Positions 7,421-51,606 of a DNA stretch of 52,004 nt are shown here, one piece after another (the first letter of the stretch is position 1; every line of letters starts with the position of its first letter). Both the position numbers and the translations under genes were made by a program. Below the pieces are notes generated by a model. The model worked only from the letters and a program-made list of their open reading frames with translations, was not told the origin of the DNA and searched no databases. This DNA comes from Actinomycetota bacterium (lineage in GTDB: Bacteria > Actinomycetota > Geothermincolia > Fen-727 > Anoxymicrobiaceae), in the NCBI GenBank assembly GCA_003154635.1, contig PMDX01000093.1, positions 250 to 52,253 of the forward strand, given 5' to 3'.

Positions 7421-9103
7421 TTATCCGCCCATCATGGATTTCAGCTCGCGCTTGAGGATCTTGCCGACGCCGCTTGTCGGAAGCTCGTCCATGAACTCGA
7501 TTGTCTTGGGTACCTTGTAGGGCGCGACGTTTTCGCGCATGAACGAGAGGATCTTCTCCTTCTCCGCGTCGTCGGGTTTAATGCCGTTCTTGAGGACGAT
7601 CGCCGCTACGACGCGCTCGGAGCCGGGCCGGTCCGGGTCGGGTATTCCGAGGGTCGCGGCCAGGTCGATGTCGGGGTGCTTGGCGAGCACGTCGTCGAGC
7701 TCGCGCGTGAAGACCTTGAACCCGGAGATGTTGACCATGTCTTTAACGCGGTCGACGATGTAGAAGTAGCCGTCCTCATCCATCCTGGCGACGTCCCCGG
7801 TGAACATCCAGCCGTCTCGGACGGCGTTGTCGGTCTCCTCAGGCTGACCGAAGTAAGCTCTCATGAGCTGTGGTCCCCTTATCGCCATCTCGCCGGGCTC
7901 TCCCAACAGGGCGAGTTCCCCAGTCGCCGGGTCGACAAGCTTCAACTCTGTATTGGGAATCGGCATCCCTATGGACGACGGCTTCTTTTTGCCGTAACGC
8001 GGGTTACAGCACGTGACAGGGGATGTCTCGGTCATGCCGTACAGCTCGATGAAGTTGGGGCCGATAATGCTCTCTAGCTCGGCAATATTTTCCGCCGGGA
8101 ACGGTGCCGCCGCGCTGAGACAGAAGTCGAGGTTGCTCAGGTCGAGTGCCTTGAACTCGGGTTGCTTCATCAACTCGAAGAAGACCGTCGGAACGTTTAT
8201 CACGGTATTAGGCTTGTACTTCTTCAGTTGCTCGATGAGAAAGTGGGAATCCCTCGGGTCCGGAACGCATATCTGCGTCGCCCCGTTCGTGATCGAGAAG
8301 CCCCCCATAGCCAACCCGGCGATGTGGAAGAGTGGGAACGCGGACAGCGTCACGATGCCGGGCTGAAGGTCGAGGTATGTGAGCGTCTGGAGCCTGTCCG
8401 ACATGTAGCTCCGCTGCGTGAGCATCGCTCCCTTGGCGGGCCCCGTGGTGCCGCCCGTGTACATGAGGAAGATGAGGTCGTCCATGGTCCGCTTTACCTC
8501 GACGCGGTCGGGCGGCATGCCATTTAGCGCGTCCATGAAGCTGACGACCTTCTTGCCTGGCAGCGGTGTCACCTCGGCGGTCGGTATCTTCTTGAGGAGC
8601 TTCCCGAGAACCCGCTTGAAACCGGGGAGGAAATCGGCGATCCCCGTGACTATTACCGTGGAGAAATTCGTCTTGTCGGCCACCTCGACTATCTTCTCGA
8701 ACATGAGATCGATCGAGATGATCGCCTTGGCTCCGGAGTCGTTGATCTGGTGAACCATCTCGGGAGGCGTGAGCAACGGGCTGAGCCCCGTCGAGACGCA
8801 CCCGGCTTTCTGGACGGCGATGAACCCGATGTAATGCGCCGGCACGTTGGGCATGTGGAGGCCGACTACATCGTCCGGCTTGAGTCCACTCTTGATCAGG
8901 TATGCGGCCAACTGGTTGGACAGCGTGTCAATCTCGCGGAAGCTGATCTTCTTGTCCATGTAGATTATCGCGGGTCTGTCCGGGTACTTCCCGGCGATCT
9001 CGCGGAATTTCTCTGCGAAAGTCTTTTCCTCGAACTCAAGTTCGGCGGGGACATTCTTGTCGTAGTTCTTCAGCCAGGGCTTCTCTGAATAGATGTCGCT
9101 CAT
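7421..9103 (-). CDS. AMP-forming acyl-CoA ligase (long/medium-chain fatty acid--CoA ligase family)
   Basis: 560 aa with the YTGGTTGPAKGAMLT P-loop-like motif, GEPGEMAIRGPQLMRAY, FTGDVARMDEDGYFYIVDRVKD and C-terminal LPTSGVGKILKRELK. RBS AAAGGAG. Confidence 0.9.
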   Translation of the reverse strand: MSDIYSEKPWLKNYDKNVPAELEFEEKTFAEKFREIAGKYPDRPAIIYMDKKISFREIDTLSNQLAAYLIKSGLKPDDVVGLHMPNVPAHYIGFIAVQKAGCVSTGLSPLLTPPEMVHQINDSGAKAIISIDLMFEKIVEVADKTNFSTVIVTGIADFLPGFKRVLGKLLKKIPTAEVTPLPGKKVVSFMDALNGMPPDRVEVKRTMDDLIFLMYTGGTTGPAKGAMLTQRSYMSDRLQTLTYLDLQPGIVTLSAFPLFHIAGLAMGGFSITNGATQICVPDPRDSHFLIEQLKKYKPNTVINVPTVFFELMKQPEFKALDLSNLDFCLSAAAPFPAENIAELESIIGPNFIELYGMTETSPVTCCNPRYGKKKPSSIGMPIPNTELKLVDPATGELALLGEPGEMAIRGPQLMRAYFGQPEETDNAVRDGWMFTGDVARMDEDGYFYIVDRVKDMVNISGFKVFTRELDDVLAKHPDIDLAATLGIPDPDRPGSERVVAAIVLKNGIKPDDAEKEKILSFMRENVAPYKVPKTIEFMDELPTSGVGKILKRELKSMMGG

Positions 9104-9422
9104 GCGGCTCTCCTTTCACGGTTACACGTCATGCGGACATAATGAAACATCGAGGGGCTGCTTTCGGACAATGAACCTGCCGGGTGCGCGGAGACATATT
9201 ACGCGATCTCCTTCAGCCGGTAATTCCGGGTGTTCCTGACTTATCGTTAGCGCCGGAATCTCATCCCGCCTCCAGCGCGTTGTACCGCCTGGCTCTTGGA
9301 AAGCCGAGAGAATAATATCTCAAATCGCTTGTCCTGTCATCATTGAAGCGAGGCACATTTGACAGCGGCGTCCGGTTGTATCATCAATGGACCCACATGC
9401 GGAAACCAATGGGAGGACAGCC

Positions 9423-10229
9423 GTGATCGAGATAAGCGAGTTCGAAGAAGTCACCTGCATAAAGATGAGTATCGAGGCTGAAGGCAGGCCGGTATACTGG
9501 GTGGCCGCATACCTCGTCGACGGCCTGCTCATCGACACAGGAGGCGCACGCACCGCCCCCGAGCTCGTCGGGTTTCTCGAGAACCGGCGGCTCGACCTGG
9601 TGGTCAACACCCATTATCACGAAGACCACATCGGAGCGAACAAACTGATAACCGAGCGATATGGAGTGCAGATCTTCGCGCATCCGGACTCGGTGCCCCT
9701 GATAAACAGGGTCCCGGAACTGCGCCCGTACCAGGAGTATGTCTGGGGGTATCCCGAGCCGTCGAAGGTCCTGCCGCTGGGCGATATGATAAAAACTGAA
9801 AGCTTCAGGTTCGAGGTCGTCGAGGTCGGCGGCCACAGCGAGGGTCACGTGGCACTCTTCGAGCGCGACAAGGGGTGGTGTTTCTCCGGTGACATCTTCA
9901 TTACCGAGAAGCCCAAGGTCATAAGGGCCGACGAGGACGCCCGAGGCTTGATCGCGTCAATGCTCATGCTGGCCGCGCTTCCCTCGGAACGGCTCGTGCT
10001 TTTGACGTCGATGGGCAGGGTTATCCCCGAGGGCCGTGAGGCTCTACTGTCCTGCGCCGGTTATTTCGAGGAACTCGGCGAGCGGGCGAAATCGCTTGCC
10101 GCGGAAGGGATCTCTCAGGCTGAGATACGCGAGAGCATCTTCGGGGAGGGGAGCTCCCTCGCCGCGCTGACGGGCGGGCATTTCAGCTCGGACAACCTCA
10201 TAGCCTCGCTGCTCGCGCCGGACCGGTAA
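9423..10229 (+). CDS. MBL-fold metallo-hydrolase
   Basis: HYHEDH (HxHxDH) motif. I prefer the GTG at 9423 (GGGAGGA 5 nt upstream) over the track start at 9387, which lacks an RBS. Confidence 0.8.
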   Translation: MIEISEFEEVTCIKMSIEAEGRPVYWVAAYLVDGLLIDTGGARTAPELVGFLENRRLDLVVNTHYHEDHIGANKLITERYGVQIFAHPDSVPLINRVPELRPYQEYVWGYPEPSKVLPLGDMIKTESFRFEVVEVGGHSEGHVALFERDKGWCFSGDIFITEKPKVIRADEDARGLIASMLMLAALPSERLVLLTSMGRVIPEGREALLSCAGYFEELGERAKSLAAEGISQAEIRESIFGEGSSLAALTGGHFSSDNLIASLLAPDR

Positions 10230-10317
10230 GCAAACACTGTCCCTCCGGATACCTGATAATGACTCTGGCATGCATCGACCGGATAAGCACTATCCGACCG
10301 GGAGGAGGGAGGTTGCG

Positions 10318-11250
10318 ATGAGCGCGAAAATCGAAACGGTGGCAATAATCGGTGCGGGCATCATGGGCGCCGGGCTCGCGCAGTTGTTTGCCCAGAACGG
10401 TTACGCGGTGAAGCTTCATGACGTCAGCATTGATGCGCTCGACCGCGCGGTGACGAGAGCCGGAAACAACATGGCGATGCAGTCGGATTTCGGCTGGATA
10501 CCTGCGGAGGATATCGTGCCCGCGCTTGAGATGATGCAGTGCACGACCGACCTCGGGGAAGCTGTGAGCAAAGCGGACTTCATCATCGAGGCAGTGCCTG
10601 AGGTGCTCGAGCTCAAGAAAAACGTCTTTGCCCGGCTCGGTGGGCTGGCGCCGGAGCATACCGTGCTCGCCAGCAATACTTCCACGTTCGACGTCATGGC
10701 CGAGATGCCGGATGCGATAGCAGGCCGAGTCCTGATAACCCATTTCTTCAACCCGCCGCAGCTCGTGCCGCTCGTCGAGGTCGTGAGGGGCGAGAGGACC
10801 GCGGATGAGGTCATCGAGACGGCGATGGAGCTGATGCGCGCGGTGGGCAAGTATCCGCTAATGCTGAATCGCTACCTGCCTGGTTTTGTCGTGAACCGTA
10901 TACAGCTCGCGATCAACGGCATGGCGTACATGATCCTCAATGAGGGAATCCTCGAGCCGGAGGATATCGACAAAGCGATCGAAAACTCCATCAGCCTGCG
11001 CCTGGCCGTGGGAGGCCCGTTCGCTACGATGGACCTGGGCGGCCTCGATGTCATGGCCGCGTCCGCGCGCGCGATGGGGGTGGAGCCGCCGCCCGCGCTC
11101 GCCGAACGAGTCGAACGTGGAGACCTCGGGGTCAAGACCGGCCGCGGGTTCTATGACTATGCCGGCATTGATGAAGAAGAGATACTTGCCCGTCGCGACC
11201 GCCGTCTCATGCTCCTACTTGACGCCTACATGCGCGGCCTCAAGGACTGA
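10318..11250 (+). CDS. 3-hydroxyacyl-CoA dehydrogenase (NAD-binding)
   Basis: The ATG at 10318 follows GGAGGAGGGAGG. Rossmann motif VAIIGAGIMGAGLAQ, plus the PE...LK and FFNPP motifs of the HAD family. Confidence 0.85.
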   Translation: MSAKIETVAIIGAGIMGAGLAQLFAQNGYAVKLHDVSIDALDRAVTRAGNNMAMQSDFGWIPAEDIVPALEMMQCTTDLGEAVSKADFIIEAVPEVLELKKNVFARLGGLAPEHTVLASNTSTFDVMAEMPDAIAGRVLITHFFNPPQLVPLVEVVRGERTADEVIETAMELMRAVGKYPLMLNRYLPGFVVNRIQLAINGMAYMILNEGILEPEDIDKAIENSISLRLAVGGPFATMDLGGLDVMAASARAMGVEPPPALAERVERGDLGVKTGRGFYDYAGIDEEEILARRDRRLMLLLDAYMRGLKD

Positions 11251-39917: not shown

Positions 39918-41144
39918 TCAGCCGACGAGGCCCTGGATTACAAACTCGAAGCAAGCGCCATCGTTATTGTAGGCGCTTATCTCGCCGTTGTAGAGCTTTA
40001 CTATCTTGTCCGCTATCGCGAGCTCTACACCGGTCGACCCTTTATCGCCCTCGTGGAAGGGAACAAACACCTTTTCGAGCTCTTCGGTGGGAATGCCGGC
40101 GCCATTATCCCGCAAAAGGAACTTCGCCCACCCACCGGGCTCGTCCGTGAGCCTGCGGATCTCGATCACGGGCCGCGAGGCGTCATTGTGCGTGATGGCG
40201 TTGTCGACGAGGTTGGCGAAGAGTTGGTGCATGTGTATCGCGCTGGCGCGGATTGTGCCCAGGTCATCGTCCAGTAGCACCTCGACGTCTCGATCCCTGA
40301 TGACAAGGGCTCTCTCCGCCAGAACGCGGGCGATCACCTCGTTGAGGTCCAGCTCGGATTCCACAGTGGAAGCTTGCCCTGCTTCGGCGAGCGCGAGCAG
40401 GTCGTCGATGAGCGCTGCCGAACGACGGACGTTGTTCTTTATCGTATCAACGAGCATCTGGACACCCCGGTCGCCACCGCTCATGCCGCCCGACTCGAGC
40501 TTCTCCCGCAGGAGCTCGTTGGCCAGCATGATATCTGTGAGCGGACCCTTGAGGTCATGGGAGACCACGTGAGCGTACCCATCGAGCTCGCGGTTCAACC
40601 GTGCGAGCTCCCGCATCGCCCCAAAGAGCTCCCGGTTTTGTTCCTGTATCTCGAGGAATACGCTTTCGGGCCTGCTCCGTCGGGCAAGCTCACCGGCTAT
40701 CTTGGAGAGGGCTTCCCCGGCGACCCTCGGCGTACCCGGGGGGAACTGCTTGCTCAACAGCACTCGCGTACTCTCGGGCTCGCTTGTCATGCCGATGTCG
40801 TCGAGCAACTCCCGGGCGAACGGGAACGCATCCGTCCCGGCTAATGCACTATCGAAAGAGAGCATGACCTGGAACAGTTGTGCGGGGGAAGACTCTTCGA
40901 CCAGGAACTGCACGTCGACAGGCGATACGGAGTTGAGGATGGTTGCGCCCGCCCCAGCCGTTCCAGCCGCTATCTCAGCCTGCTGGCGCGTGGGAAATCC
41001 GAGCAACCCCGCTATCTGCCTGGTCCGCTGCCTCAGCTCGAGGAGGTCATCCTCGGAGCCGATGCTCATCGTCAGAATCGTAACGCTCATCGTACTGTCA
41101 TCTGTCGTCATTGCTCCATGCGCGAAGCTCACGCGGGAATCCAA
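39918..41144 (-). CDS. sensor histidine kinase (HisKA + HATPase_c) with unassigned ~170-aa N-terminal domain
   Basis: H-box YAHVVSHDLKGPL. N/G boxes ITHND...DNGAGIP...GSTGVELAI. No TM or PAS domain. The start is uncertain. Confidence 0.85.
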   Translation of the reverse strand: MDSRVSFAHGAMTTDDSTMSVTILTMSIGSEDDLLELRQRTRQIAGLLGFPTRQQAEIAAGTAGAGATILNSVSPVDVQFLVEESSPAQLFQVMLSFDSALAGTDAFPFARELLDDIGMTSEPESTRVLLSKQFPPGTPRVAGEALSKIAGELARRSRPESVFLEIQEQNRELFGAMRELARLNRELDGYAHVVSHDLKGPLTDIMLANELLREKLESGGMSGGDRGVQMLVDTIKNNVRRSAALIDDLLALAEAGQASTVESELDLNEVIARVLAERALVIRDRDVEVLLDDDLGTIRASAIHMHQLFANLVDNAITHNDASRPVIEIRRLTDEPGGWAKFLLRDNGAGIPTEELEKVFVPFHEGDKGSTGVELAIADKIVKLYNGEISAYNNDGACFEFVIQGLVG

Positions 41145-41184
41145 CGGTTATCATAGCTCGGCGTACCGACGGACTCGTAACGCG

Positions 41185-42876
41185 TCAGTCGGGAGGGGAA
41201 TCCGAATCGTCGCTGACAGCATCCTGCACGATGGGCTCGTCGATCTCGAGCACTGCCCCCGGTTTGCCGGTCTCGTCTATCACGACGGTCCACCTGCTGA
41301 TAACCGGAACGACGTCGCCGCTCCTTGAAGTATGGGTCAGACGCCCTTCCCAGCAACCATTGGCGAGCAGGACGAAATCGATCTCACCGGGTGGGCATGG
41401 GAACACCGTTTCGAGGAGCTCGTGAGCGACCTTGCCAACGGCTTCATCCGCGTTCCACCCGAACAGGCTTTCCGCACCGGCGTTCCATGTGCGGATCCCG
41501 TCGTTCATATCACGATGGATTATTGCGAAAGGCAGCACATCCATGAGGCGGGCTTTCTCTTCGAGCTCGACGGCGCGATGCCGAAGGTCGTCCATGGCGA
41601 GCTCTTCCTCCGTGACTTCCCTCATGGTTGCCAGGACGGCACTCACATTTGCGTCCCAACCGGTTATCGGACTGAGGATATACTCGAACTCGCCCTCACC
41701 GCTAACGGTCGGAAGATGCAGCCGGCCCGCACGCTGCTCTCCGGTCCTGACGACATTCTCGCGCATCACGTCGAGGGGGTGCATGGCCTTTTCGGAGAGT
41801 CCAAGGTCCCACCAGTACCGGCCCTCCACTTCGCCCTGCTTCAGCCCGAGCAGCTTCGATGCGGGCTCGCTTGCGTAGATGAACTTGCCTCTGGTGTCAA
41901 AGAGGTAGAAGTGGTCGGGGGACGAGGAGAGTATCTGGTCGAGCATCCTTGCCTGCCCGTGCACCTGCGCTGACAGCGTCTTGAGCGAGCCTTCTACCCT
42001 CTGTCTGACGGCGATTTCGGCCCGGAGCTCGCGGTTCGACTCGGCCAGTTGCGACGTGCGCTCGCGCACCCGCTCCTCGAGCTCATCGCGGGCTTTCTTG
42101 ACCGCGTCCTCCGCCCTCCTGCGCTCGGTCATATCCTGAGCGAAGAGCGCCACTCTCTCGACCTCGCCGTTCTCACCCGCGATTGGGTGTATCACCAGCT
42201 CGAGGTACGTGCCTTTGTACTCATCGCTGAAGTGCGCCGGTGCGCCGGTGTTGAACACCTCCGCCATCGTCTCCTTGCATTCCCGGGCGAGCTCGGGAGG
42301 GGTGTGCTCGAAGAAATTCATTCCTGTTATCTCGTCTGGCTCCATCTTCATGCGTTTAGCCGCCGTCTCGTTGGCCGCAAGCACGGTCCCCTGCCTGTCG
42401 AGTAGCACCAGGGTCTGGAGAGTGGCGTTCAGCAGGGCGCGCTCGTTCTCCTCGCTACGCCGCAGCCTCTCCTCGGCTTTATTGAGAGCGATCTCGTTGA
42501 GGACGTTCGCGACAGCCTCGGGCAGCCGCGCGGACATCCTGTTGTCCTTTACCACGTATCCAGAGACGCGTAGCCTCAGCGCTTCGGAGGCGACCGACTC
42601 ATCGCCCTGACCCGTGACCATTATGACGGGCGGGTGGTTCTTCTTGCCGGTGATCTCGTTGAGGAGTTGCAGGCCGGAACCGTCGGGAAGCTGGTAATCG
42701 AGAATCACCACGTCGATCGCCTGAGAAACGAGGTGCCGCCTCGCCTCCTGGACGTCGCTGGCTATCTCTACGGACGCCTGAAAACGCCTTGAAAGCAGGC
42801 GTTCCACACTCCGCGCGATCTCGGCGTCGTCGTCGACGACCAGCATGCGGGTTCTGGTGTCAGTGCTAAGTGTCAT
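41185..42876 (-). CDS. response-regulator receiver domain followed by about three PAS domains (no output domain)
   Basis: MLVVDDDAEIARSVE...DVVILDYQLPDGSGL...VIMVTGQGDE is the REC domain. Repeated PAS-like segments and coiled-coil linkers follow. Confidence 0.85.
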   Translation of the reverse strand: MTLSTDTRTRMLVVDDDAEIARSVERLLSRRFQASVEIASDVQEARRHLVSQAIDVVILDYQLPDGSGLQLLNEITGKKNHPPVIMVTGQGDESVASEALRLRVSGYVVKDNRMSARLPEAVANVLNEIALNKAEERLRRSEENERALLNATLQTLVLLDRQGTVLAANETAAKRMKMEPDEITGMNFFEHTPPELARECKETMAEVFNTGAPAHFSDEYKGTYLELVIHPIAGENGEVERVALFAQDMTERRRAEDAVKKARDELEERVRERTSQLAESNRELRAEIAVRQRVEGSLKTLSAQVHGQARMLDQILSSSPDHFYLFDTRGKFIYASEPASKLLGLKQGEVEGRYWWDLGLSEKAMHPLDVMRENVVRTGEQRAGRLHLPTVSGEGEFEYILSPITGWDANVSAVLATMREVTEEELAMDDLRHRAVELEEKARLMDVLPFAIIHRDMNDGIRTWNAGAESLFGWNADEAVGKVAHELLETVFPCPPGEIDFVLLANGCWEGRLTHTSRSGDVVPVISRWTVVIDETGKPGAVLEIDEPIVQDAVSDDSDSPPD

Positions 42877-42982
42877 ATTGATCCCAGGTCAAAGGAAATG
42901 TCGGAATATCTAATTCAACGAAGGGCAACCAGCCCCTGCCAACGGGATGGGACGTTTTTGTGGACTCCGTGTGAAAAGGTGC

Positions 42983-44623
42983 TCAGGGCTCGGCCTTGAT
43001 GTCTCTGAGCGATAGCTCAAAGCACGCGCCTCCGTTGTTGTAAGCCCTGACATCTCCTCCGTACGCGCTAACGACTTTCTTGACTATGGCCAGGCCGATT
43101 CCACTACTGCGGTTTTTTCCCGACCTGACGAACGGCGTGAATATCTCGTCGATCACCTGTTCCGGGATGCCCGAGCTGTTATCGCACACCTGGAACCGGT
43201 GGGCGCCGGCCTTGTCATCCAGTCTTCTGATGGCGACGACCGGCTCGGGGCTGTCGTTGTGCAGGATAGCATTTGATATGAGGTTGCCGAACACCTGGTA
43301 CATCTGCGTCTCGTTTGCCCTGATCGTCCCGAGGTCAGGATCGATCTGGAGTTTGACGCCATGGGATGCGACTTGATGCGCGTACTCTTCGACCACCTTG
43401 TGGACCACGCCCCTGATGTCGACTTCGGTGATGTTGACTGGTTGCTGCCCGGCCTCGGCGAGGAGCAGGAGGTCGTTAATCAGCTTGTAGGCCTTGCTGG
43501 TGCTACGCCCGATAAGCGCGGTCTCTTCGTCGATCTCCGAGCGCAGGATCTCGTCTTTGTCATCGAGCGCGTCGCGGAGCAGTTCGTTTGCCATTATGAC
43601 CGCCGAGAGCGGACTCCTGAGGTCGTGGGAGACTGTGTGGGCATACGCGTCGAGCCCCTCGTTGGCGCGTCTCAAGTCCTCTTCGGTCTTCTTGCGGTCG
43701 CTGATATCGCGGAACATGAGCACACGTCCGATTGCCTGCCCCTGGTCATCCAGCATGACACTGACTGAAACCAGCGCCGGCAGCGTGGAGCCGTCCTTCC
43801 GGGTCATCTCGATCTCACCGTTCCACTCTGCCGTGTTCTCAAACGCTTCGGACAGCTCGGCCGGGAACAACCCGACCTGCTTTCCGGAGAGCATCGATTC
43901 GTAACTTTGCTGCCCTAGCAACTCCCCCTCTTCGTATCCGAGCAGCCTGTAGAACGCCGTGTTGGCATAGACGAGGCGAAGATCCCCATCGAGCACGTTA
44001 ATGGCCTCGAAAGAGCTGTCGGCAAGATACTTGAACCTCCGCAACTCAGAGGTCCTTTCCGCGACCTGTCGCTCGAGCTCCCTGGCCCGCTCACGGTCGA
44101 TGCGTTCCTGTTCGCGAAGGTCAGTGACCACCGCAAAGAGTACACGCGAATCCGCGAGGTCCATCGGGGCGACGGCAAGATACACCTCCACAGGCTTGCC
44201 GGAACCGCTCCTGAGCTCGAACTCGCCCCTGACACCGCCGTTTGCCTGCAGCTGTGAAAGGCGGAGGAAATCACTCTTCTGCTCGGGTGAAGACAGGAAG
44301 CGGAAGAAAGATGAGCCGATGACGGAATCCATCGGTTCGTCGACAATGGTCGCGAATAATGAGTTGCAGTAGAGCACAGTGCCATCTTCCCCTATGGTCA
44401 CGGCTCCTTCGTGCATGGTCTCGATGATGGTGCGGTATGCCTGGTCGGCGCCATCGAGGGTGTAGACCCTGGCGTCGGATTCCCCGGTGACCACAAAGGC
44501 GTCAACCTCGCCGAGGCTGATAGCCCGGAGGGTGTCTTCGGCCTCGCGCAACCGCTCGCGCAACCGCGCGATCTCTGAGGCATTTTCGCGGCCGGGCTGC
44601 TCGTCCTCCGACACTGGAATCAC
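42983..44623 (-). CDS. PAS-domain sensor histidine kinase
   Basis: H-box YAHTVSHDLRSPL. The HATPase_c C-terminus (AYNNGGACFELSL) is paralogous to the 39918 gene. Two PAS segments. GTG start. Confidence 0.85.
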   Translation of the reverse strand: MIPVSEDEQPGRENASEIARLRERLREAEDTLRAISLGEVDAFVVTGESDARVYTLDGADQAYRTIIETMHEGAVTIGEDGTVLYCNSLFATIVDEPMDSVIGSSFFRFLSSPEQKSDFLRLSQLQANGGVRGEFELRSGSGKPVEVYLAVAPMDLADSRVLFAVVTDLREQERIDRERARELERQVAERTSELRRFKYLADSSFEAINVLDGDLRLVYANTAFYRLLGYEEGELLGQQSYESMLSGKQVGLFPAELSEAFENTAEWNGEIEMTRKDGSTLPALVSVSVMLDDQGQAIGRVLMFRDISDRKKTEEDLRRANEGLDAYAHTVSHDLRSPLSAVIMANELLRDALDDKDEILRSEIDEETALIGRSTSKAYKLINDLLLLAEAGQQPVNITEVDIRGVVHKVVEEYAHQVASHGVKLQIDPDLGTIRANETQMYQVFGNLISNAILHNDSPEPVVAIRRLDDKAGAHRFQVCDNSSGIPEQVIDEIFTPFVRSGKNRSSGIGLAIVKKVVSAYGGDVRAYNNGGACFELSLRDIKAEP

Positions 44624-47561: not shown

Positions 47562-47655
47562 CCGAACCAGCCCGGTTCCTCGCAACGGCAAGCCTCCCAC
47601 CCACACTTATCCAACAAACTTTCCGTTCAAGTTGCTCGACTTGCCGCTCTACAGA

Positions 47656-47683
47656 TTGACTATACGTTCAAAACTTATAGAAT
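47656..47683 (+). promoter_or_regulatory. sigma70-like promoter TTGACT-16 nt-TAGAAT
   Basis: -35 at 47656-47661 and -10 at 47678-47683, in the AT-richer gap upstream of the DUF35/thiolase-like operon. Confidence 0.45.
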
Positions 47684-47876
47684 AGTCTCGCTTTTTGTTC
47701 AGAGCCCAGAGGTGACGGAGAGCAGCTTGCTTAGACCTTACTCGTTCATGTCAAGGCCATCCGCGCCGGCCCATCATGCGGCCGCGGCAAGTCACCGACT
47801 CCGTTCACGAGAAACCCCGCCAAGGTTCCCTGGTTCCGCAAATTAATAGAGTCTTGTAACGGTTTGGCGAAAAGAG

Positions 47877-48350
47877 GTGAGGCAGTTGGCTGGTTGGAAA
47901 GACGAGGTGGAGGAGATCATCTTCCCGGGCAAGATATGCGTGCCCTATTCCTGGACCGTCGGCAGCACCCTCAGCAAATGGTACGTACAGCTGAGGGATG
48001 ACGGAGAAATTTGGGCAAACCGCTGTCCGTCCTGCGGGAAGGTCTACGTCCCCCCCAAGATCAAGTGCATCGATTGCTACAAGGACATGAACGACTGGAT
48101 CAAGCTGCCCGGCACGGGCACGGTCGAGACCTACACCGTGGTTCATTACAGCGAGCCGGGGCTGCACCCCAAGAAGCCACCATTCGTCTACGGTGTCATC
48201 AAGATGGACGGAGCCGACACGGGCCTGGTCCATCTGATCGACGGTGTGGATCCAGATAAGGTCAAGGTGGGAATGCGGGTGCAGGCCGTGATGGCCAAGG
48301 AACGCGATGGCCACATCACGGATATCAAGCACTTCAAGCCCATCGCTTAA
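47877..48350 (+). CDS. Zn-ribbon/OB-fold protein (DUF35 family)
   Basis: CPSCGKVYVPPKIKCIDCY rubredoxin-like knuckle followed by an OB-fold segment (GTVETYTVVH...). The start is uncertain (GTG at 47877 or TTG at 47886). Confidence 0.85.
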   Translation: MRQLAGWKDEVEEIIFPGKICVPYSWTVGSTLSKWYVQLRDDGEIWANRCPSCGKVYVPPKIKCIDCYKDMNDWIKLPGTGTVETYTVVHYSEPGLHPKKPPFVYGVIKMDGADTGLVHLIDGVDPDKVKVGMRVQAVMAKERDGHITDIKHFKPIA

Positions 48351-48381
48351 CGTCAGCGGAAAAAGAACGGTGGTGAGATAA

Positions 48382-49518
48382 TTGGAACGAGTAGCTGTCA
48401 TAGGCGTAGGGCAGACGAAGTACAGCGCCGGAATGCGCGAGACATTTCATGAGCTCGTCTTCGACGTGGCGACGAAGGCCCTCAAAGACGCGGGCATAAC
48501 CATCAAAGATATCGACAACGTCGTGTCAGTCTCCAGCGACTTCTGGGATGGCCGTACTATATCCAGCATGGCGATATCCGACGCCTCCGGCGCGTTTGGC
48601 AAAGATATTTCGACGGTAGAGGGCGACGGCACTTTCGGTGTCCTCTACGGCATGATGAGAATCCTCTCCGGTAGCTTCGGCACGACCATGGTAGTCGCGC
48701 ATCACAAGGGCACCGAGAGCAACATGAACGGCATTACCAACACCTCATTCGACCCGCTGGTCGAGCGCAAGCTCGGGCTCGACGCGGTGAGTTCGGCGGC
48801 GCTGCAGGCCCGCAGGTACATGACTACCTCCGGGGGCTCCGAGGAGCAGTTCGCGATGGTGTCGGTCAAGAACCACGGCAACGCGATGAACAACCCGTTC
48901 GCGATGCTTCCCATGGAGATCACGGTCGAGGACGTCATGGCATCCAGGATGCTCGCGACGCCCATTAAGAAGCTCGACTGCTCTCCGGTGACCGATGGCG
49001 CGGCCGCGGTCGTTCTGGCGGCCGAGCGCAACGCAAAGAAGTTCACGACGAACAAGAAGAGGGTCTGGCTCAACGGCGTCGGCCATTGCTCTGACGCGTA
49101 CAGGCTCGGCGACCGCGACCTCGCGGATACCCGCGCGCTAAAGCAGGCCGCAAAGATGGCCTACGACATGGCGGGTGTCACATTGGACGACATCGACGTC
49201 GCCGAGGTATACGACGCTTTCTCCTACATGGAGCCGATGTGGCTCGAAGGCCTTGGCTTCTGCGAGGACGGCATGGGTCCCGAGATGACCGAGCGCGGCA
49301 CCTTCAACATGGACGGGGCGCTGCCGGTCAACCCGTCGGGCGGAAGGCTCTCGGCCAATCCCGTGCAGGTCGCGGGGCTGGCGGCCCTCATCGAATGCGT
49401 ACTTCAAATCCGCGGTGAGGCCGGCAAGCGCCAGGTGAAGAAGGCTGAAAAAGCCCTCGCACACGGCATCAACGGGATGTGCGGCCAGTCCCATTGCGTC
49501 TGGATACTGGGTAAGTAG
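48382..49518 (+). CDS. thiolase-fold (SCP-x type) protein lacking the canonical catalytic Cys and His
   Basis: VAVIGVGQTKY N-terminus and VNPSGGRLS...QIRGEAGKRQV C-terminus typical of SCP-x thiolases. The nucleophile position reads VEGDGTFG (canonical VEAACASG), and the GHP site reads SANPVQVAG. Confidence 0.85.
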   Translation: MERVAVIGVGQTKYSAGMRETFHELVFDVATKALKDAGITIKDIDNVVSVSSDFWDGRTISSMAISDASGAFGKDISTVEGDGTFGVLYGMMRILSGSFGTTMVVAHHKGTESNMNGITNTSFDPLVERKLGLDAVSSAALQARRYMTTSGGSEEQFAMVSVKNHGNAMNNPFAMLPMEITVEDVMASRMLATPIKKLDCSPVTDGAAAVVLAAERNAKKFTTNKKRVWLNGVGHCSDAYRLGDRDLADTRALKQAAKMAYDMAGVTLDDIDVAEVYDAFSYMEPMWLEGLGFCEDGMGPEMTERGTFNMDGALPVNPSGGRLSANPVQVAGLAALIECVLQIRGEAGKRQVKKAEKALAHGINGMCGQSHCVWILGK

Positions 49519-49530
49519 GGGGAATGCCAT

Positions 49531-50685
49531 ATGGGAAAGCGAGTCGGAATCGTAGGGGTCGGACAGACCCACCACGCGTCGCAGCGTCTCGATTGCTCGG
49601 GCGTTGAGTTGATAGCGGAGGCAGTGACGAGGGCGCTCGACGACGCAGAGGTAACCCTTGATGATATCGATGCAATAGTCATCGGCAACATGGACCATTT
49701 CGAAAACGTAAACTACGTCGACATGTGGGCCACCGACGGCCTCGGCTCTTGCATGAAGCCGGTCATCAAAGTCACCACCGGAGGCACGACGGGCACCTCG
49801 GTAGCCGCTTGCGCGTACTACCACTCGGCGTCCGGCCTCTTCGATACGGTCATGGCCGTCGGCTGGGAGAAGAACTCCGAGTCGGACACCCAGGCCGCAA
49901 TCGCGACGTGCGCCAACCCGGTGCTCGAGCGCGACCCGTTCGCCGGCGCCATCGGGCCGCTGGCGACCGAGTACTCAATGTACATGGAAGCTTATGGAGC
50001 CACGGAGGAGGACTCGGCGAGAGTAGCCGCGCGCGACCGCAACAACGCGATGAACAACATCTACGCGCACAACCGGATGCACGTGACCGTCGAAGACGTC
50101 CTCAACTCACCGATGCTCTCGTACCCGGTGAAGTTCCTCGACATGTGCCCGCGTTCCGACGGGGCCTGCGCGGTGATCTTCTCTTCGGAGGAAAAAGCCA
50201 AGAAGCTTGCTCCTCAGCCGGCGTGGGTGCACGCTTCGGTCGTGCGCCATGACTACACGCACTTCGGCGACCTGGCATGGCAGTGGATGCCGACGCTCGA
50301 GATGGCCACGCTAGAGGCGTACAAGATAGCGGGCATCACGAATCCAGTCAAAGAGTTCGACGTCGCAGAGCTCTACCTCCCGTGCTCTACCTGCGGGGTC
50401 AAGTGGATGGACTCCTTCTACTTCTGTGAGAGGGGCCAGGCGCCCAAGCTCATCAGGAGCGGGGCGACCCACATGGACGGGATCCTGCCGATCAACCCGT
50501 CGGGCGGCGTCATCTCGTGCAACCCGATCGGCGCGACCGCCCTCCTGCGCGTGGGCGAAGCGGCGTGGCAGATAATGGGCAAATCAGGCGACAGGCAGAT
50601 ACCGAATGTCAAAAAGACTCTCTCGAGTGGGTTCGGCGGCTGCAGTTGGACTGACATAATGATACTCGGAGCAGACTTGCCATAA
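49531..50685 (+). CDS. thiolase-fold (SCP-x type) protein lacking the canonical catalytic Cys and His
   Basis: VGIVGVGQTHH...INPSGGVIS. The nucleophile position reads VTTGGTTG and the GHP site reads SCNPIGATA. RBS AGGGGGAA. Confidence 0.85.
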   Translation: MGKRVGIVGVGQTHHASQRLDCSGVELIAEAVTRALDDAEVTLDDIDAIVIGNMDHFENVNYVDMWATDGLGSCMKPVIKVTTGGTTGTSVAACAYYHSASGLFDTVMAVGWEKNSESDTQAAIATCANPVLERDPFAGAIGPLATEYSMYMEAYGATEEDSARVAARDRNNAMNNIYAHNRMHVTVEDVLNSPMLSYPVKFLDMCPRSDGACAVIFSSEEKAKKLAPQPAWVHASVVRHDYTHFGDLAWQWMPTLEMATLEAYKIAGITNPVKEFDVAELYLPCSTCGVKWMDSFYFCERGQAPKLIRSGATHMDGILPINPSGGVISCNPIGATALLRVGEAAWQIMGKSGDRQIPNVKKTLSSGFGGCSWTDIMILGADLP

Positions 50686-50706
50686 GTCAAGGGAGGTTAA
50701 CAGACA

Positions 50707-51354
50707 ATGGGACTGTACACTGATAAAAGGAAGACGACGACCACCCCCGACGGGTATGAGCTGCTAACGCATGAGTCCGGCCCGATCGAGTACAAGTTCA
50801 ACTGGCACATGGGCCCGTTCTGGAGCAAGTACCTTGCCGCCATGCGCGACGAGGGAAAGATCCTGGGAGTGAAATGCCCCAAGTGTGGCATCGTCTACAT
50901 ACCGCCACGAGCGGTGTGCGGCCAGTGTTTCGTGGAGCCTAACGAGTGGGTAGAAGTCGGCCCCGAGGGGCTGCTCAAGGGCTTTACCGTCGTGAGGTTC
51001 CCTTACATCGACCCCAACACCGGACACCTCATGAAGGTGCCGTTCACCGCTGTCTGGATAACTCTGGACGGTGCCGACACCCGCATGATGCACTTCTGCA
51101 ATGAGTTGGACGAGCACAAGATGCGGGTCGGAATGCCCATGAAGGCAGTATTCGCCAAGAAGCCCCGCCCGACATCCATCCACGCGGTGGAACGCTTCGA
51201 CATCATCCCCGGAGGAAAGGTCGTTGAGGAGGTACACCCGCCGCGGATGGACGTTCCCATAAAGATGGAGCTTCCTACCAAGGCGACCGCAAAGCGCAAG
51301 GGTGCCGGCGCCAAGAAGGCTACCAAGAAAAAGGTAGCCGCCAAGAAAAAATAA
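50707..51354 (+). CDS. Zn-ribbon/OB-fold protein (DUF35 family) with Lys/Ala-rich C-terminal tail
   Basis: CPKCGIVYIPPRAVCGQCF plus an OB segment. The last ~26 aa are PTKATAKRKGAGAKKATKKKVAAKKK. RBS AGGGAGG. Confidence 0.85.
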   Translation: MGLYTDKRKTTTTPDGYELLTHESGPIEYKFNWHMGPFWSKYLAAMRDEGKILGVKCPKCGIVYIPPRAVCGQCFVEPNEWVEVGPEGLLKGFTVVRFPYIDPNTGHLMKVPFTAVWITLDGADTRMMHFCNELDEHKMRVGMPMKAVFAKKPRPTSIHAVERFDIIPGGKVVEEVHPPRMDVPIKMELPTKATAKRKGAGAKKATKKKVAAKKK

Positions 51355-51380
51355 CAGAACCTGAAAAGGTCATAGAACAA

Positions 51381-51409
51381 AAGAGCGGGGTCCTGACGGC
51401 CCCGCTCTT
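51381..51409 (+). terminator. rho-independent terminator-like hairpin
   Basis: AAGAGCGGGG (51381-51390), 9-nt loop, CCCCGCTCTT (51400-51409), followed by TCCTATTCC. It lies 27 nt after the operon's last stop. Confidence 0.6.
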
Positions 51410-51606
51410 TCCTATTCCCTTGAGACCCTGCATTCAAAAGAACAAGAAGACTGTGGTCTGTTTCTGCTTCTTGAGCCGGGTCTCTCAGGCCCGGGTCTCT
51501 TTCTTGGATTTGCGCCAGGGTAAGACTCGCGTTGAACAAGGGATCTGGCCTGACGACGTATGGTACGATATCCACAGAGCTCAAATTCAAGCAGGAGGGG
51601 ACACTG

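Follow-up and report, generated by a model that had tools for sequence, protein, structure and literature searches.

A widespread cassette of DUF35 and cysteine-less thiolase-fold proteins, mis-annotated as thiolase, as a candidate heteromeric aldol-lyase

The cassette

This report concerns four adjacent genes in a 52,004-nt stretch of DNA (the window, whose numbering is used throughout) from an Actinomycetota bacterium of the Geothermincolia lineage (GenBank assembly GCA_003154635.1, contig PMDX01000093.1). All four lie on one strand in the order D1-T1-T2-D2, where D1 and D2 are DUF35 proteins and T1 and T2 are proteins with the fold of SCP2-type thiolases. The cassette is widespread and mis-annotated as a thiolase, and it has a known genetic counterpart in Ltp3/Ltp4/Rv3521. 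An earlier note, made from the letters of this DNA, had proposed that the genes probably encode not a thiolase but a C-C lyase of thiolase fold that is scaffolded by DUF35 proteins and acts on an acyl-CoA. The computational analysis described here supports the core of that proposal: no ortholog has the nucleophile cysteine, a tyrosine occupies the position of the HDCF histidine as it does in the aldolases Ltp2 and Sal, cassettes in other phyla keep company with genes for MaoC-type hydratases, acyl-CoA dehydrogenases (ACADs) and acyl-CoA ligases, and there is homology to Ltp3 and Ltp4.

Between successive genes lie 31, 12 and 21 nt; every gene has a Shine-Dalgarno (SD)-like sequence ahead of it, and T1 and T2 are in frame with each other. 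Four co-directional genes with short gaps behind a promoter are what the earlier note had described; the open reading frames and the TTGACT-16-TAGAAT site were indeed found where it had placed them (Table 1). By Pfam, D1 and D2 each contain zf-ChsH2 and OB_ChsH2_C, both above gathering cutoffs, and T1 and T2 contain Thiolase_N and Thiolase_C_1; the four Zn-ribbon cysteines (CxxC...CxxC) are conserved in the DUF35 orthologs. T1 and T2 are 35% identical and D1 and D2 36%, and the cassette is therefore an old duplication of a module made of one thiolase-like and one DUF35 protein.

Where does D1 begin? Its open reading frame was first listed as 47877-48350, and a start at GTG 47877 would give 157 aa; since this GTG sits within the invariant SD AAGAGGTG, the start is most likely TTG 47886, giving 154 aa as in the ENA call. 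Both the SD and the TTG are invariant in a comparison of Geothermincolia lineages. In eight such lineages the -35 and -10 elements of the promoter and the spacer part TCAAAAC are invariant, with diverged flanks. The spacer is conserved too across the promoter stretch at 47650-47690, GATTGACTAtaCGTTCAAAACttATAGAAT, and in most lineages it is spanned by a GACTAT...ATAGTC inverted repeat, which may be an operator for a regulator. The ~200-nt leader upstream of D1 is conserved among the closest relatives only and had no Rfam match, so no riboswitch or known RNA was found in it. As for the terminator hairpin proposed to follow the operon, the hairpin itself is strong (none of 200 shuffles folded as well), but its T-tract is weak, and a consensus terminator scanner passed over it and flagged a second hairpin at 51476-51494 instead.

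Table 1. Features of the cassette, in window coordinates
Feature	Position	Strand	Support
Promoter-like site of sigma-70 type, TTGACT-16-TAGAAT	47656..47683	+	10/12 match; ~200 nt upstream of D1
D1 (DUF35, Zn-ribbon + OB fold, 154 aa)	47886..48350	+	Pfam zf-ChsH2 5e-8, OB_ChsH2_C 4.5e-17
T1 (Ltp4-like Cys-less SCP2-thiolase-fold protein, 378 aa; putative partner subunit)	48382..49518	+	Pfam Thiolase_C_1 9e-45
T1 Gly83 codon, thiolase nucleophile-Cys position	48628..48630	+	alignments to solved thiolases and to T2
T1 Tyr277 codon, HDCF-His position, equivalent to CtSal Tyr302	49210..49212	+	alignment to 9myr_A
T2 (Ltp3-like Cys-less SCP2-thiolase-fold protein, 384 aa; putative catalytic subunit)	49531..50685	+	Pfam Thiolase_N, Thiolase_C_1
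T2 Gly85 codon, thiolase nucleophile-Cys position	49783..49785	+	alignment to 6esq, VTTGGTTG vs VEAACASG
T2 Tyr282 codon, HDCF-His position, proposed catalytic base	50374..50376	+	alignments to solved thiolases and to T1
T2 Asn331 codon, GHP-His position (Tyr344 in Ltp2, Gln352 in Sal)	50521..50523	+	alignment to solved thiolases
D2 (DUF35, 215 aa)	50707..51354	+	Pfam zf-ChsH2 2e-8, OB_ChsH2_C 3.6e-9
Terminator-like hairpin (13-bp G+C-rich stem, 5-nt loop) + weak T-tract	51380..51410	+	dG -28.5 kcal/mol, z -4.3

Active-site residues of T1 and T2

What has become of the thiolase active site? Phmmer alignments to solved thiolases and a BLASTP alignment of T1 with T2 served to locate the catalytic positions, and residue conservation was counted over 51 T1 orthologs and 58 T2 orthologs. 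The nucleophile-cysteine position of V-E-A-A-C-A-S-G is held by Gly83 in T1, directly after which three residues are deleted, and by Gly85 in T2. This Cys-to-Gly replacement, already read in both proteins by the earlier note, extends to 51/51 T1 and 58/58 T2 orthologs, with cysteine in none; the loss is family-wide and no local mutation. The GHP histidine, likewise said to have become asparagine in both, is Asn326 in T1 (SANP) and Asn331 in T2 (SCNP). Asn331 is invariant in T2 (58/58), but position 326 varies with lineage (28 of the 51 orthologs have Asn, 23 have His), and the asparagine is no family trait of T1. The nucleotide coordinates originally given for these motifs were right to within a few bases.

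Alignment to thiolase structures and to those of the Ltp2/Sal type leaves both losses standing and brings out a change that had been missed: the HDCF motif is altered in both proteins, to YDAF in T1 (from Y277) and to YLPC in T2. Tyrosine occupies the HDCF-histidine position in 48/51 T1 and 58/58 T2 orthologs, and the acid/base cysteine that SCP2-type enzymes carry in this motif is replaced by Ala279 in T1 and Pro284 in T2; none of the T1 orthologs has the HDCF histidine or the HDCF cysteine. The paper on Sal (2025 JBC, PMC12329534) provides the frame for reading these changes. SCP2 thiolases have the HDCF motif, a Cys/His set and a histidine at the GHP position. The aldolase Ltp2 has YDHF, with Tyr294 as base and, at the GHP-histidine position, Tyr344 as acid; the aldolase Sal has YDCY, with Tyr302 as base, Cys304 as acid, Gln352 at the GHP-histidine position and glycine where the nucleophile used to be (PMC12329534). 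In direct alignment to 9myr_A, T1 Y277-D-A-F falls on Sal Y302-D-C304-Y, and Tyr282 of T2 in turn aligns to Tyr277 of T1. Judged from these alignments, both T1 and T2 share the aldolase-type tyrosine and glycine, together with an amide at the GHP position.

Around these positions conservation is extensive. T2 has the invariant blocks MDHFE (54-58), TTGGTTG (82-88), GWEKNSESDT (111-120) and C206-P-R208, and further invariants at Tyr282, Pro284, N331-P-I-G-A-T, Cys371 and Trp373; T1 has DF(W)DGRTIS (53-61), E80, D82, G83, H107, K109, C367, Q369 and H371. The cysteines C367 of T1 (51/51) and C371 of T2 (58/58) lie in the C-terminal loop, at the site of the CxG motif of classical thiolases, and their invariance favours one rival explanation, namely that the complex is a genuine beta-ketoacyl-CoA thiolase or condensing enzyme with a non-canonical mechanism, in which the nucleophile would come from Cys371 or Cys206 of T2, or from Cys367 or Cys372 of T1 with His371, and which would carry out the last step of a beta-oxidation-like pathway. 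That the closest solved structures by sequence are true thiolases also speaks for it. Yet no ortholog has a cysteine at the nucleophile position, cysteine is not conserved across the wider T2-like class, both catalytic histidines are replaced in T2, and the tyrosine at the HDCF position is that of characterised aldolases.

Fold and family relationships

Can the fold itself tell an aldolase from a thiolase? An AF2 model of T2 (pLDDT 83.6, pTM 0.89) matches SCP2 thiolases, BbsB, PhlC, Ltp2 and Sal with TM 0.80-0.88 at 20-30% identity (Foldseek), and 6hsp, 6esq and 7yvy with TM 0.85-0.88. All SCP2-type structures thus match about equally, the comparison does not separate aldolase from thiolase, and T2 is therefore placed in a clade of its own. 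The best PDB match of T1 is 7yvy (5e-49). D1 matches 6esq_E, ChsH2(DUF35) 6ok1_B, 3irb and Shy(DUF35) 9myr_B, and D2 matches 3irb, 6esq_E, PhlB and Shy(DUF35). In NCBIfam, T1 and T2 come nearest to PRK08313 and PRK06064/65/66 ('thiolase domain-containing protein'), in every case below cutoff. The low-confidence loops of the T2 model, 56-63 and 117-138 (window ~49696-49719 and ~49879-49944), overlap the motifs MDHFENxNY and SESDT that are invariant across phyla, which suggests interface or lid loops that would be ordered only within the complex.

The C-terminus of D2 (~51199-51351) is a 51-aa Lys/Ala/Pro-rich tail of 'PAKKA' type. Such a tail, 32-108 aa long, occurs in ~18 Geothermincolia orthologs (among the fetched loci, which carry L numbers, these are L009, L011, L013-L015, L018, L022, L041, L043 and others) and is absent from other Geothermincolia and from all other phyla compared; as a lineage-specific trait it was set aside as a clue to function.

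Two further departures from the canonical active site were seen among relatives. ST0096, a 'thiolase-like protein' of Sulfolobus tokodaii (PDB 4yzo), apparently has serine at the nucleophile position (VDNTSGSG) and keeps HD.. and GHP. At L025:15156-16923 and L038:15997-17152 there is a third Cys-less thiolase-like flavour with an adjacent DUF35 gene, reading VEGGGGTG and retaining both histidines (EVHDAY, GHP).

Distribution and selection

The earlier note had pointed to other genomes as a place to look for the same four-gene cassette, and the search found the D1-T1-T2-D2 order kept in ~45 fetched loci, from Actinomycetota (Geothermincolia), where proteins of the nearest genome contig share 96% identity with those of the window, to an Asgard archaeon. 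It occurs in metagenome-assembled genomes (MAGs) of Deltaproteobacteria, Bacillota, Spirochaetota/Leptospirales and Zymogenaceae, with T1 and T2 54-66% identical, and likewise in Dehalococcoidia and in the Asgard archaeon Ca. Jordarchaeum; T2 keeps ~60% identity from Bacteria to Archaea. Purifying selection acts on all four genes, whose dN/dS is 0.05-0.2 at dS 0.1-1.4 (0.05-0.18 for D1 and 0.08-0.12 for T1). Decaying pseudogenes or pseudoenzymes are ruled out by dN/dS of ~0.1 in all four genes and by the identity of T2 across the two domains.

The same data bear on a second rival, a non-catalytic assembly that would serve as an acyl-CoA- or lipid-binding scaffold for other enzymes or would moonlight in some role related to nucleic acids. 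In its favour, all classical catalytic residues are lost, DUF35 proteins scaffold archaeal thiolase/HMG-CoA synthase and fatty-acid-synthase complexes, a Sulfolobus DUF35 protein, Sso2509/Trf, is described as a translation recovery factor (PMC6996347), D2 bears its polycationic lysine-rich tail, and the window cassette has no metabolic neighbours beside it. We nevertheless hold this explanation to be very unlikely, given the extreme conservation of loops equivalent to the active site (GWEKNSESDT, Tyr282 and Asn331 in T2) together with the ~60% identity between Bacteria and Archaea, the low dN/dS of all four genes, the confinement of the tail to few lineages, and the metabolic operons in which the cassette stands in other phyla.

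How large is the family? A HMMER search with T2 against 1.84 billion cluster representatives (clusters at 50% identity) gave 2440 matches at E <= 1e-10 and 281 at E <= 1e-30. A class census covered 104 full-length representatives. The T2-like class, with [GAS]-G at the nucleophile position, accounts for 49 of them, 33 with tyrosine at the HDCF-histidine position and 38 with asparagine at the GHP-histidine position; the T1-like class, with Asp-Gly at the nucleophile position, accounts for 20 and has no conserved residue at either histidine position. Canonical Cys/His/His thiolases number 17 (His at the HDCF position in 15/17, at the GHP position in 16/17), and another class of 18 has mixed residues at both. 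In the unrelated loci L053, L074, L076 and L080, T1-like and T2-like genes are direct neighbours and are accompanied by one or two DUF35 genes, a pairing that, in terms of sequence class, resembles a catalytic subunit with its partner.

At least 10 Geothermincolia MAGs also have a second T2 paralog that stands alone, shares ~80% identity with the T2 of the cassette, falls in a separate clade and retains all of the invariant residues. Neither T1 nor D1 nor D2 adjoins it, and it always lies between pth plus genes of unknown function and mfd (L025, L033, L036, L038-L040, L042, L046-L048 and L069-L071, at ~8001-9155 or 10001-11155).

Genomic context

In the window the cassette is a transcription unit of its own, between a PHP-domain gene and an unrelated small gene. 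Upstream of the region with the LPG-synthase gene, the PHP gene and the cassette, window 39918-44623 (-) encodes a histidine kinase, a response regulator with PAS domains and a PAS histidine kinase. A FadD-like acyl-CoA ligase at 7433-9085 (-) shares 39% identity with the deltaproteobacterial ligase found after D2, and close to it a 3-hydroxyacyl-CoA dehydrogenase (3HCDH) at 10318-11187 (+) is 39% identical to that of L056; the two lie ~38 kb from the cassette and may be pathway partners encoded at a distance.

Other phyla are more informative. Seven of nine loci from bacteria other than Actinomycetota share the order TetR ... BKACE - D1-T1-T2-D2 - AMP-forming CoA ligase; most of these seven continue with a MaoC hydratase and an ACAD, and several also have 3HCDHs. 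MaoC genes adjoin the cassette in other phyla only, and there is none in the window. In several Geothermincolia a ligase 44% identical to the deltaproteobacterial one directly follows D2, and a T2-like family 46% identical to T2 is found with MaoC, a T1-like gene, DUF35, BKACE, ACAD and ligase. By analogy, the succession of ligase, ACAD, (R)-hydratase and DUF35-bound Cys-less thiolase-fold protein would follow the logic of ChsE/ChsH/Ltp2 and of Shy/Sal, and the recurrent BKACE suggests a beta-keto acid as product or co-substrate. The NCBIfam names of the partner enzymes are generic and gave no clue to the substrate.

Two loci have neighbours of another kind. One Dehalococcoidia contig carries two cassettes (L074:396-5153 and L074:7771-16329), the one ordered T-T-D-D with a CoA-transferase and the other ordered D-T-T-D and followed by biotin carboxylase, carboxyltransferase, ECH, BKACE and BCCP genes. 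The Asgard (Jordarchaeum) cassette (L072:4441-6529) has a split B12-dependent acyl-CoA mutase divergently upstream. These neighbours hint at branched-chain or carboxylated acyl-CoA substrates.

How, then, does context bear on the rival thiolase? The cassette sits in what would be the thiolase slot of deltaproteobacterial and related operons, alongside ligase, ACAD, hydratase and 3HCDH, and no other thiolase lies within the 8-kb flanks examined. The adjacent hydratase, however, is of the MaoC type and (R)-specific, whereas 3HCDH-family dehydrogenases normally take (S)-3-hydroxyacyl-CoA, and for this reason the 3HCDH more likely pairs with BKACE on a free beta-hydroxy acid. Moreover, the nearest functionally assigned homologs, Ltp3 and Ltp4, are aldol-lyases. 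Taking this together with the residue changes, we regard a thiolase with a relocated nucleophile as quite unlikely.

A third rival is another carbanion reaction on a CoA thioester that would proceed without an acyl-enzyme, either decarboxylation of a malonyl- or beta-carboxyacyl-CoA, as in proteins of the KS-Q/CLF type and TbSLP, or a biosynthetic aldol or Claisen condensation of acetyl-CoA with a ketone, aldehyde or beta-keto acid. The carboxylase genes behind the second Dehalococcoidia cassette are consistent with it, as is the slow decarboxylation of malonyl-CoA by TbSLP, which has YDCF (PMC12329534); aldolase reactions are reversible, and in an anaerobic host lineage a condensation could serve assimilation. 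However, the carboxylase neighbourhood occurs in one contig only, the recurrent ligase, ACAD and MaoC hydratase are catabolic and yield a 3-hydroxyacyl-CoA, and CtSal has no malonyl-CoA decarboxylase activity (PMC12329534). On balance we consider such a reaction unlikely.

A retro-aldol lyase and its proposed mechanism

We favour, with a probability of roughly 55%, the reading that the product of the operon is a heteromeric retro-aldol lyase for a 3-hydroxyacyl-CoA, in which T2 would be the catalytic subunit, T1 its partner, and D1 and D2 the staples. The catalytic role is assigned to T2 because the T2-like class keeps the tyrosine and the asparagine in most of its members, as counted above, and the T1-like class has nothing conserved there. 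T1 and T2 would form a heterodimer of thiolase type, each face of which would be capped by one DUF35 protein with its Zn-ribbon and OB fold; T2 would hold the working active site, and T1 would shape the pocket or the interface. Tyr282 of T2 would deprotonate the beta-hydroxyl while the backbone NH of Gly85 and the amide of Asn331 polarise hydroxyl and thioester, and the bond between C-alpha and C-beta would break to give a carbonyl compound and the enolate of acetyl- or propionyl-CoA, which would be protonated by an acid, for which the invariant Cys371 of T2 is a candidate. The substrate would be made by the acyl-CoA ligase, the ACAD and the (R)-specific MaoC hydratase that are encoded beside the cassette in other phyla, and a BKACE, which acts on a beta-keto acid, is a frequent companion. 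More speculatively, the substrate might be of the 3-hydroxy-3-alkylglutaryl-CoA type and be cleaved to acetyl-CoA and a beta-keto acid, which BKACE might then convert, with acetyl-CoA, to an acyl-CoA and acetoacetate.

Several points weigh against the retro-aldol lyase. Neither T1 nor T2 has a counterpart of the second catalytic residue known from Ltp2 and Sal: asparagine stands for Tyr344 of Ltp2 and alanine (T1) or proline (T2) for Cys304 of Sal, so that the acid named above is guesswork. T1 is conserved as strongly as T2 and has invariant polar residues of its own (E80, D82, H107, K109, C367, Q369 and H371), so that it may be more than a passive partner. By sequence, T1 and T2 are nearer to archaeal-type true thiolases (7yvy and 6esq; 130-170 bits) than to Ltp2 and Sal (75-118 bits), and the tyrosine at the HDCF position could be convergent with theirs. 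Deltaproteobacterial operons that encode 3HCDHs and have no second thiolase in their flanks fit a thiolase role, and in the window itself no pathway neighbours were found beside the cassette, the nearest acyl-CoA genes being ~38 kb away. Finally, even the aldol-lyase role of Ltp3 and Ltp4 was defined by genetics and not by biochemistry.

A bolder idea, which we raise tentatively and would ourselves bet against, is that D1-T1-T2-D2 is the prototype of a large radiation of heterodimeric Cys-less thiolase-fold C-C lyases, outlined by the 281 matches to T2 at E <= 1e-30 and by the 49 T2-like and 20 T1-like members of the census. Their catalysis would differ from that of Ltp2 (Tyr/Tyr) and Sal (Tyr/Cys) in using Tyr282 and Asn331 with an acid that a different loop or the partner subunit supplies. 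With BKACE, MaoC hydratase and ACAD, such enzymes might make up a thiolase- and NAD-independent route by which anaerobes, including Asgard archaea, dismantle beta-substituted or otherwise non-oxidisable acyl-CoAs.

Significance

In databases, thousands of entries for the T1/T2 family go under the names 'acetyl-CoA C-acetyltransferase', 'propanoyl-CoA acyltransferase' or 'thiolase family protein'. Judging from their residues, none of the orthologs examined should be able to form the acyl-cysteine intermediate that defines a thiolase, and for that reason, where the metabolism of Geothermincolia, Dehalococcoidia, Deltaproteobacteria and Asgard archaea has been reconstructed with genes of this family as beta-oxidation or acetoacetyl-CoA thiolases, the reconstruction is probably wrong. 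The cassette also offers a compact four-protein model for aldol-lyases of the Ltp3/Ltp4 type, which are needed for the removal of phytosterol side chains in industrial mycobacteria. If the retro-aldol reading is true, it would add a third way to rebuild a thiolase active site for retro-aldol chemistry, and it would explain why the system relies on a heterodimer and on two different DUF35 staples. The conserved association with BKACE, for its part, hints at an undescribed anaerobe pathway for beta-keto or beta-hydroxy acids.

Comparison with known systems

Among characterised aldolases, Ltp2-ChsH2(DUF35) (PDB 6ok1) shares with the cassette the SCP2-thiolase fold (TM 0.82-0.83, Foldseek), the absence of a catalytic cysteine, the tyrosine at the HDCF-histidine position (YDHF in Ltp2) and a DUF35 partner, and it follows a MaoC-type hydratase in its pathway, just as the cassette lies next to MaoC in other phyla. 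Unlike the cassette, however, Ltp2 is a homodimer whose DUF35 is a domain of the hydratase subunit; the position of its acid Tyr344 is asparagine in T1 and T2, His296 of its YDHF is alanine or proline, and the similarity is weak (77-90 bits). Sal-Shy(DUF35), the bile-acid aldolase of Comamonas testosteroni (PDB 9myr), has glycine at the nucleophile position, a Tyr302 that falls on T1 Tyr277, and an amide at the GHP-histidine position (Gln352 in Sal, Asn in T1 and T2). Its crystal structure, DUF35-enzyme-enzyme-DUF35, mirrors the gene order D-T-T-D of the cassette. The differences are that the essential Cys304 of Sal is alanine in T1 and proline in T2, that Sal is a homodimer, and that its DUF35 is fused to a MaoC hydratase; T2 is ~24% identical to Sal in the Foldseek alignment.

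The archaeal thiolase/HMG-CoA synthase/DUF35 complex contains the solved structures that come nearest in both sequence and fold (135-144 bits; TM 0.86-0.88) and resembles the cassette, as judged from its genes, in using DUF35 as a staple and in having two thiolase-fold proteins per complex. But the archaeal thiolases keep the Cys/His/Cys/His set and are active ketothiolases, the second partner is HMG-CoA synthase, and there is one type of DUF35 rather than two. That the cassette is simply this trio is ruled out: neither Pfam nor NCBIfam gives an HMG-CoA synthase family match, and T1 and T2 are both paralogs of SCP2-thiolase type. The active ketothiolase/DUF35 pairs of a preprint on an archaeal 'fatty acid synthase' belong to a different family from the cassette. 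The benzoylsuccinyl-CoA thiolase BbsAB (PDB 7pxp) and the acyltransferases PhlABC/MucABC (5m3k, 9vbo) likewise combine an SCP2-type thiolase-fold subunit with a DUF35 subunit, and in PhlA/PhlC two different thiolase-fold proteins share one DUF35-stapled complex; unlike T1 and T2, BbsB and PhlC use a catalytic cysteine, and PhlA is KAS-III-like and no SCP2-thiolase paralog. BbsAB was ruled out by the NCBIfam equivalogs, with 22.5/16.2 bits for BbsA (cutoff 250) and 141/115 bits for BbsB (cutoff 750).

The closest known system is Ltp3/Ltp4. A T2-like representative, P0259, passes the PRK08313 cutoff (704 vs 514 bits), and its locus (L080) has the order EchA19-like enoyl-CoA hydratase - 315-aa double-DUF35 protein - PRK07937 'lipid-transfer protein' (562 bits vs a cutoff of 419) - PRK08313 protein. 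In the cholesterol region of M. tuberculosis lie Rv3521 (conserved hypothetical), Rv3522 ltp4 and Rv3523 ltp3, with echA19 nearby (PMC6429209). The gene order of the P0259 locus matches Rv3521 - ltp4 - ltp3, and from this order and the family names we infer that PRK08313 is Ltp3. According to a 2012 genetic study as cited in PMC6593523 and PMC10832528, Ltp3 and Ltp4 are aldol-lyases that remove propionyl-CoA from C24-branched sterol side chains. In the literature searched, no biochemical, kinetic or structural study of the Ltp3/Ltp4 type was found, and no characterised equivalent turned up in searches on DUF35 with BKACE or on heteromeric thiolase-like proteins with DUF35.

How close is the cassette to this system? 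T2 is 38% identical to the PRK08313 protein of L080, with glycine at the nucleophile position, V-x-T-x-G, FEKxSES, E-x-Y-x-P and S-A-N-P-I-G in common. T1 shows 31% identity to the PRK07937 protein, with which it shares VE-x-DG, the three-residue deletion, SSD-x-x-x-GR and H-x-x-x-G-x-C. Nonetheless, T2 scores 356 bits against PRK08313 (cutoff 514) and T1 189 bits against PRK07937 (cutoff 419), and the DUF35 modules, fused in one upstream gene in L080, are here encoded separately, as D1 and D2, on either side of the pair. The hosts differ, being anaerobic Geothermincolia, Dehalococcoidia, Deltaproteobacteria and Asgard archaea, and so do the companions, which are BKACE, FadD-like ligase, MaoC and ACAD rather than EchA19/FadD19; no steroid genes (echA19, fadD19, KstR regulon context) were found in the window or in the related loci examined. 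Because their scores fall far under both family cutoffs and their context is not that of steroid degradation, T1 and T2 are relatives of Ltp4 and Ltp3 and no orthologs. What the two systems have in common is one T2-like and one T1-like gene, adjacent and co-directional, and two DUF35 modules, with each half of the L080 double-DUF35 protein 28-33% identical to D1 or D2. The earlier note had recognised no counterpart for a Cys-less pair in which each member has its own DUF35, and here it must be corrected: Rv3521 - ltp4 - ltp3 has the same parts list, and its ltp genes have been genetically characterised as aldol-lyases.

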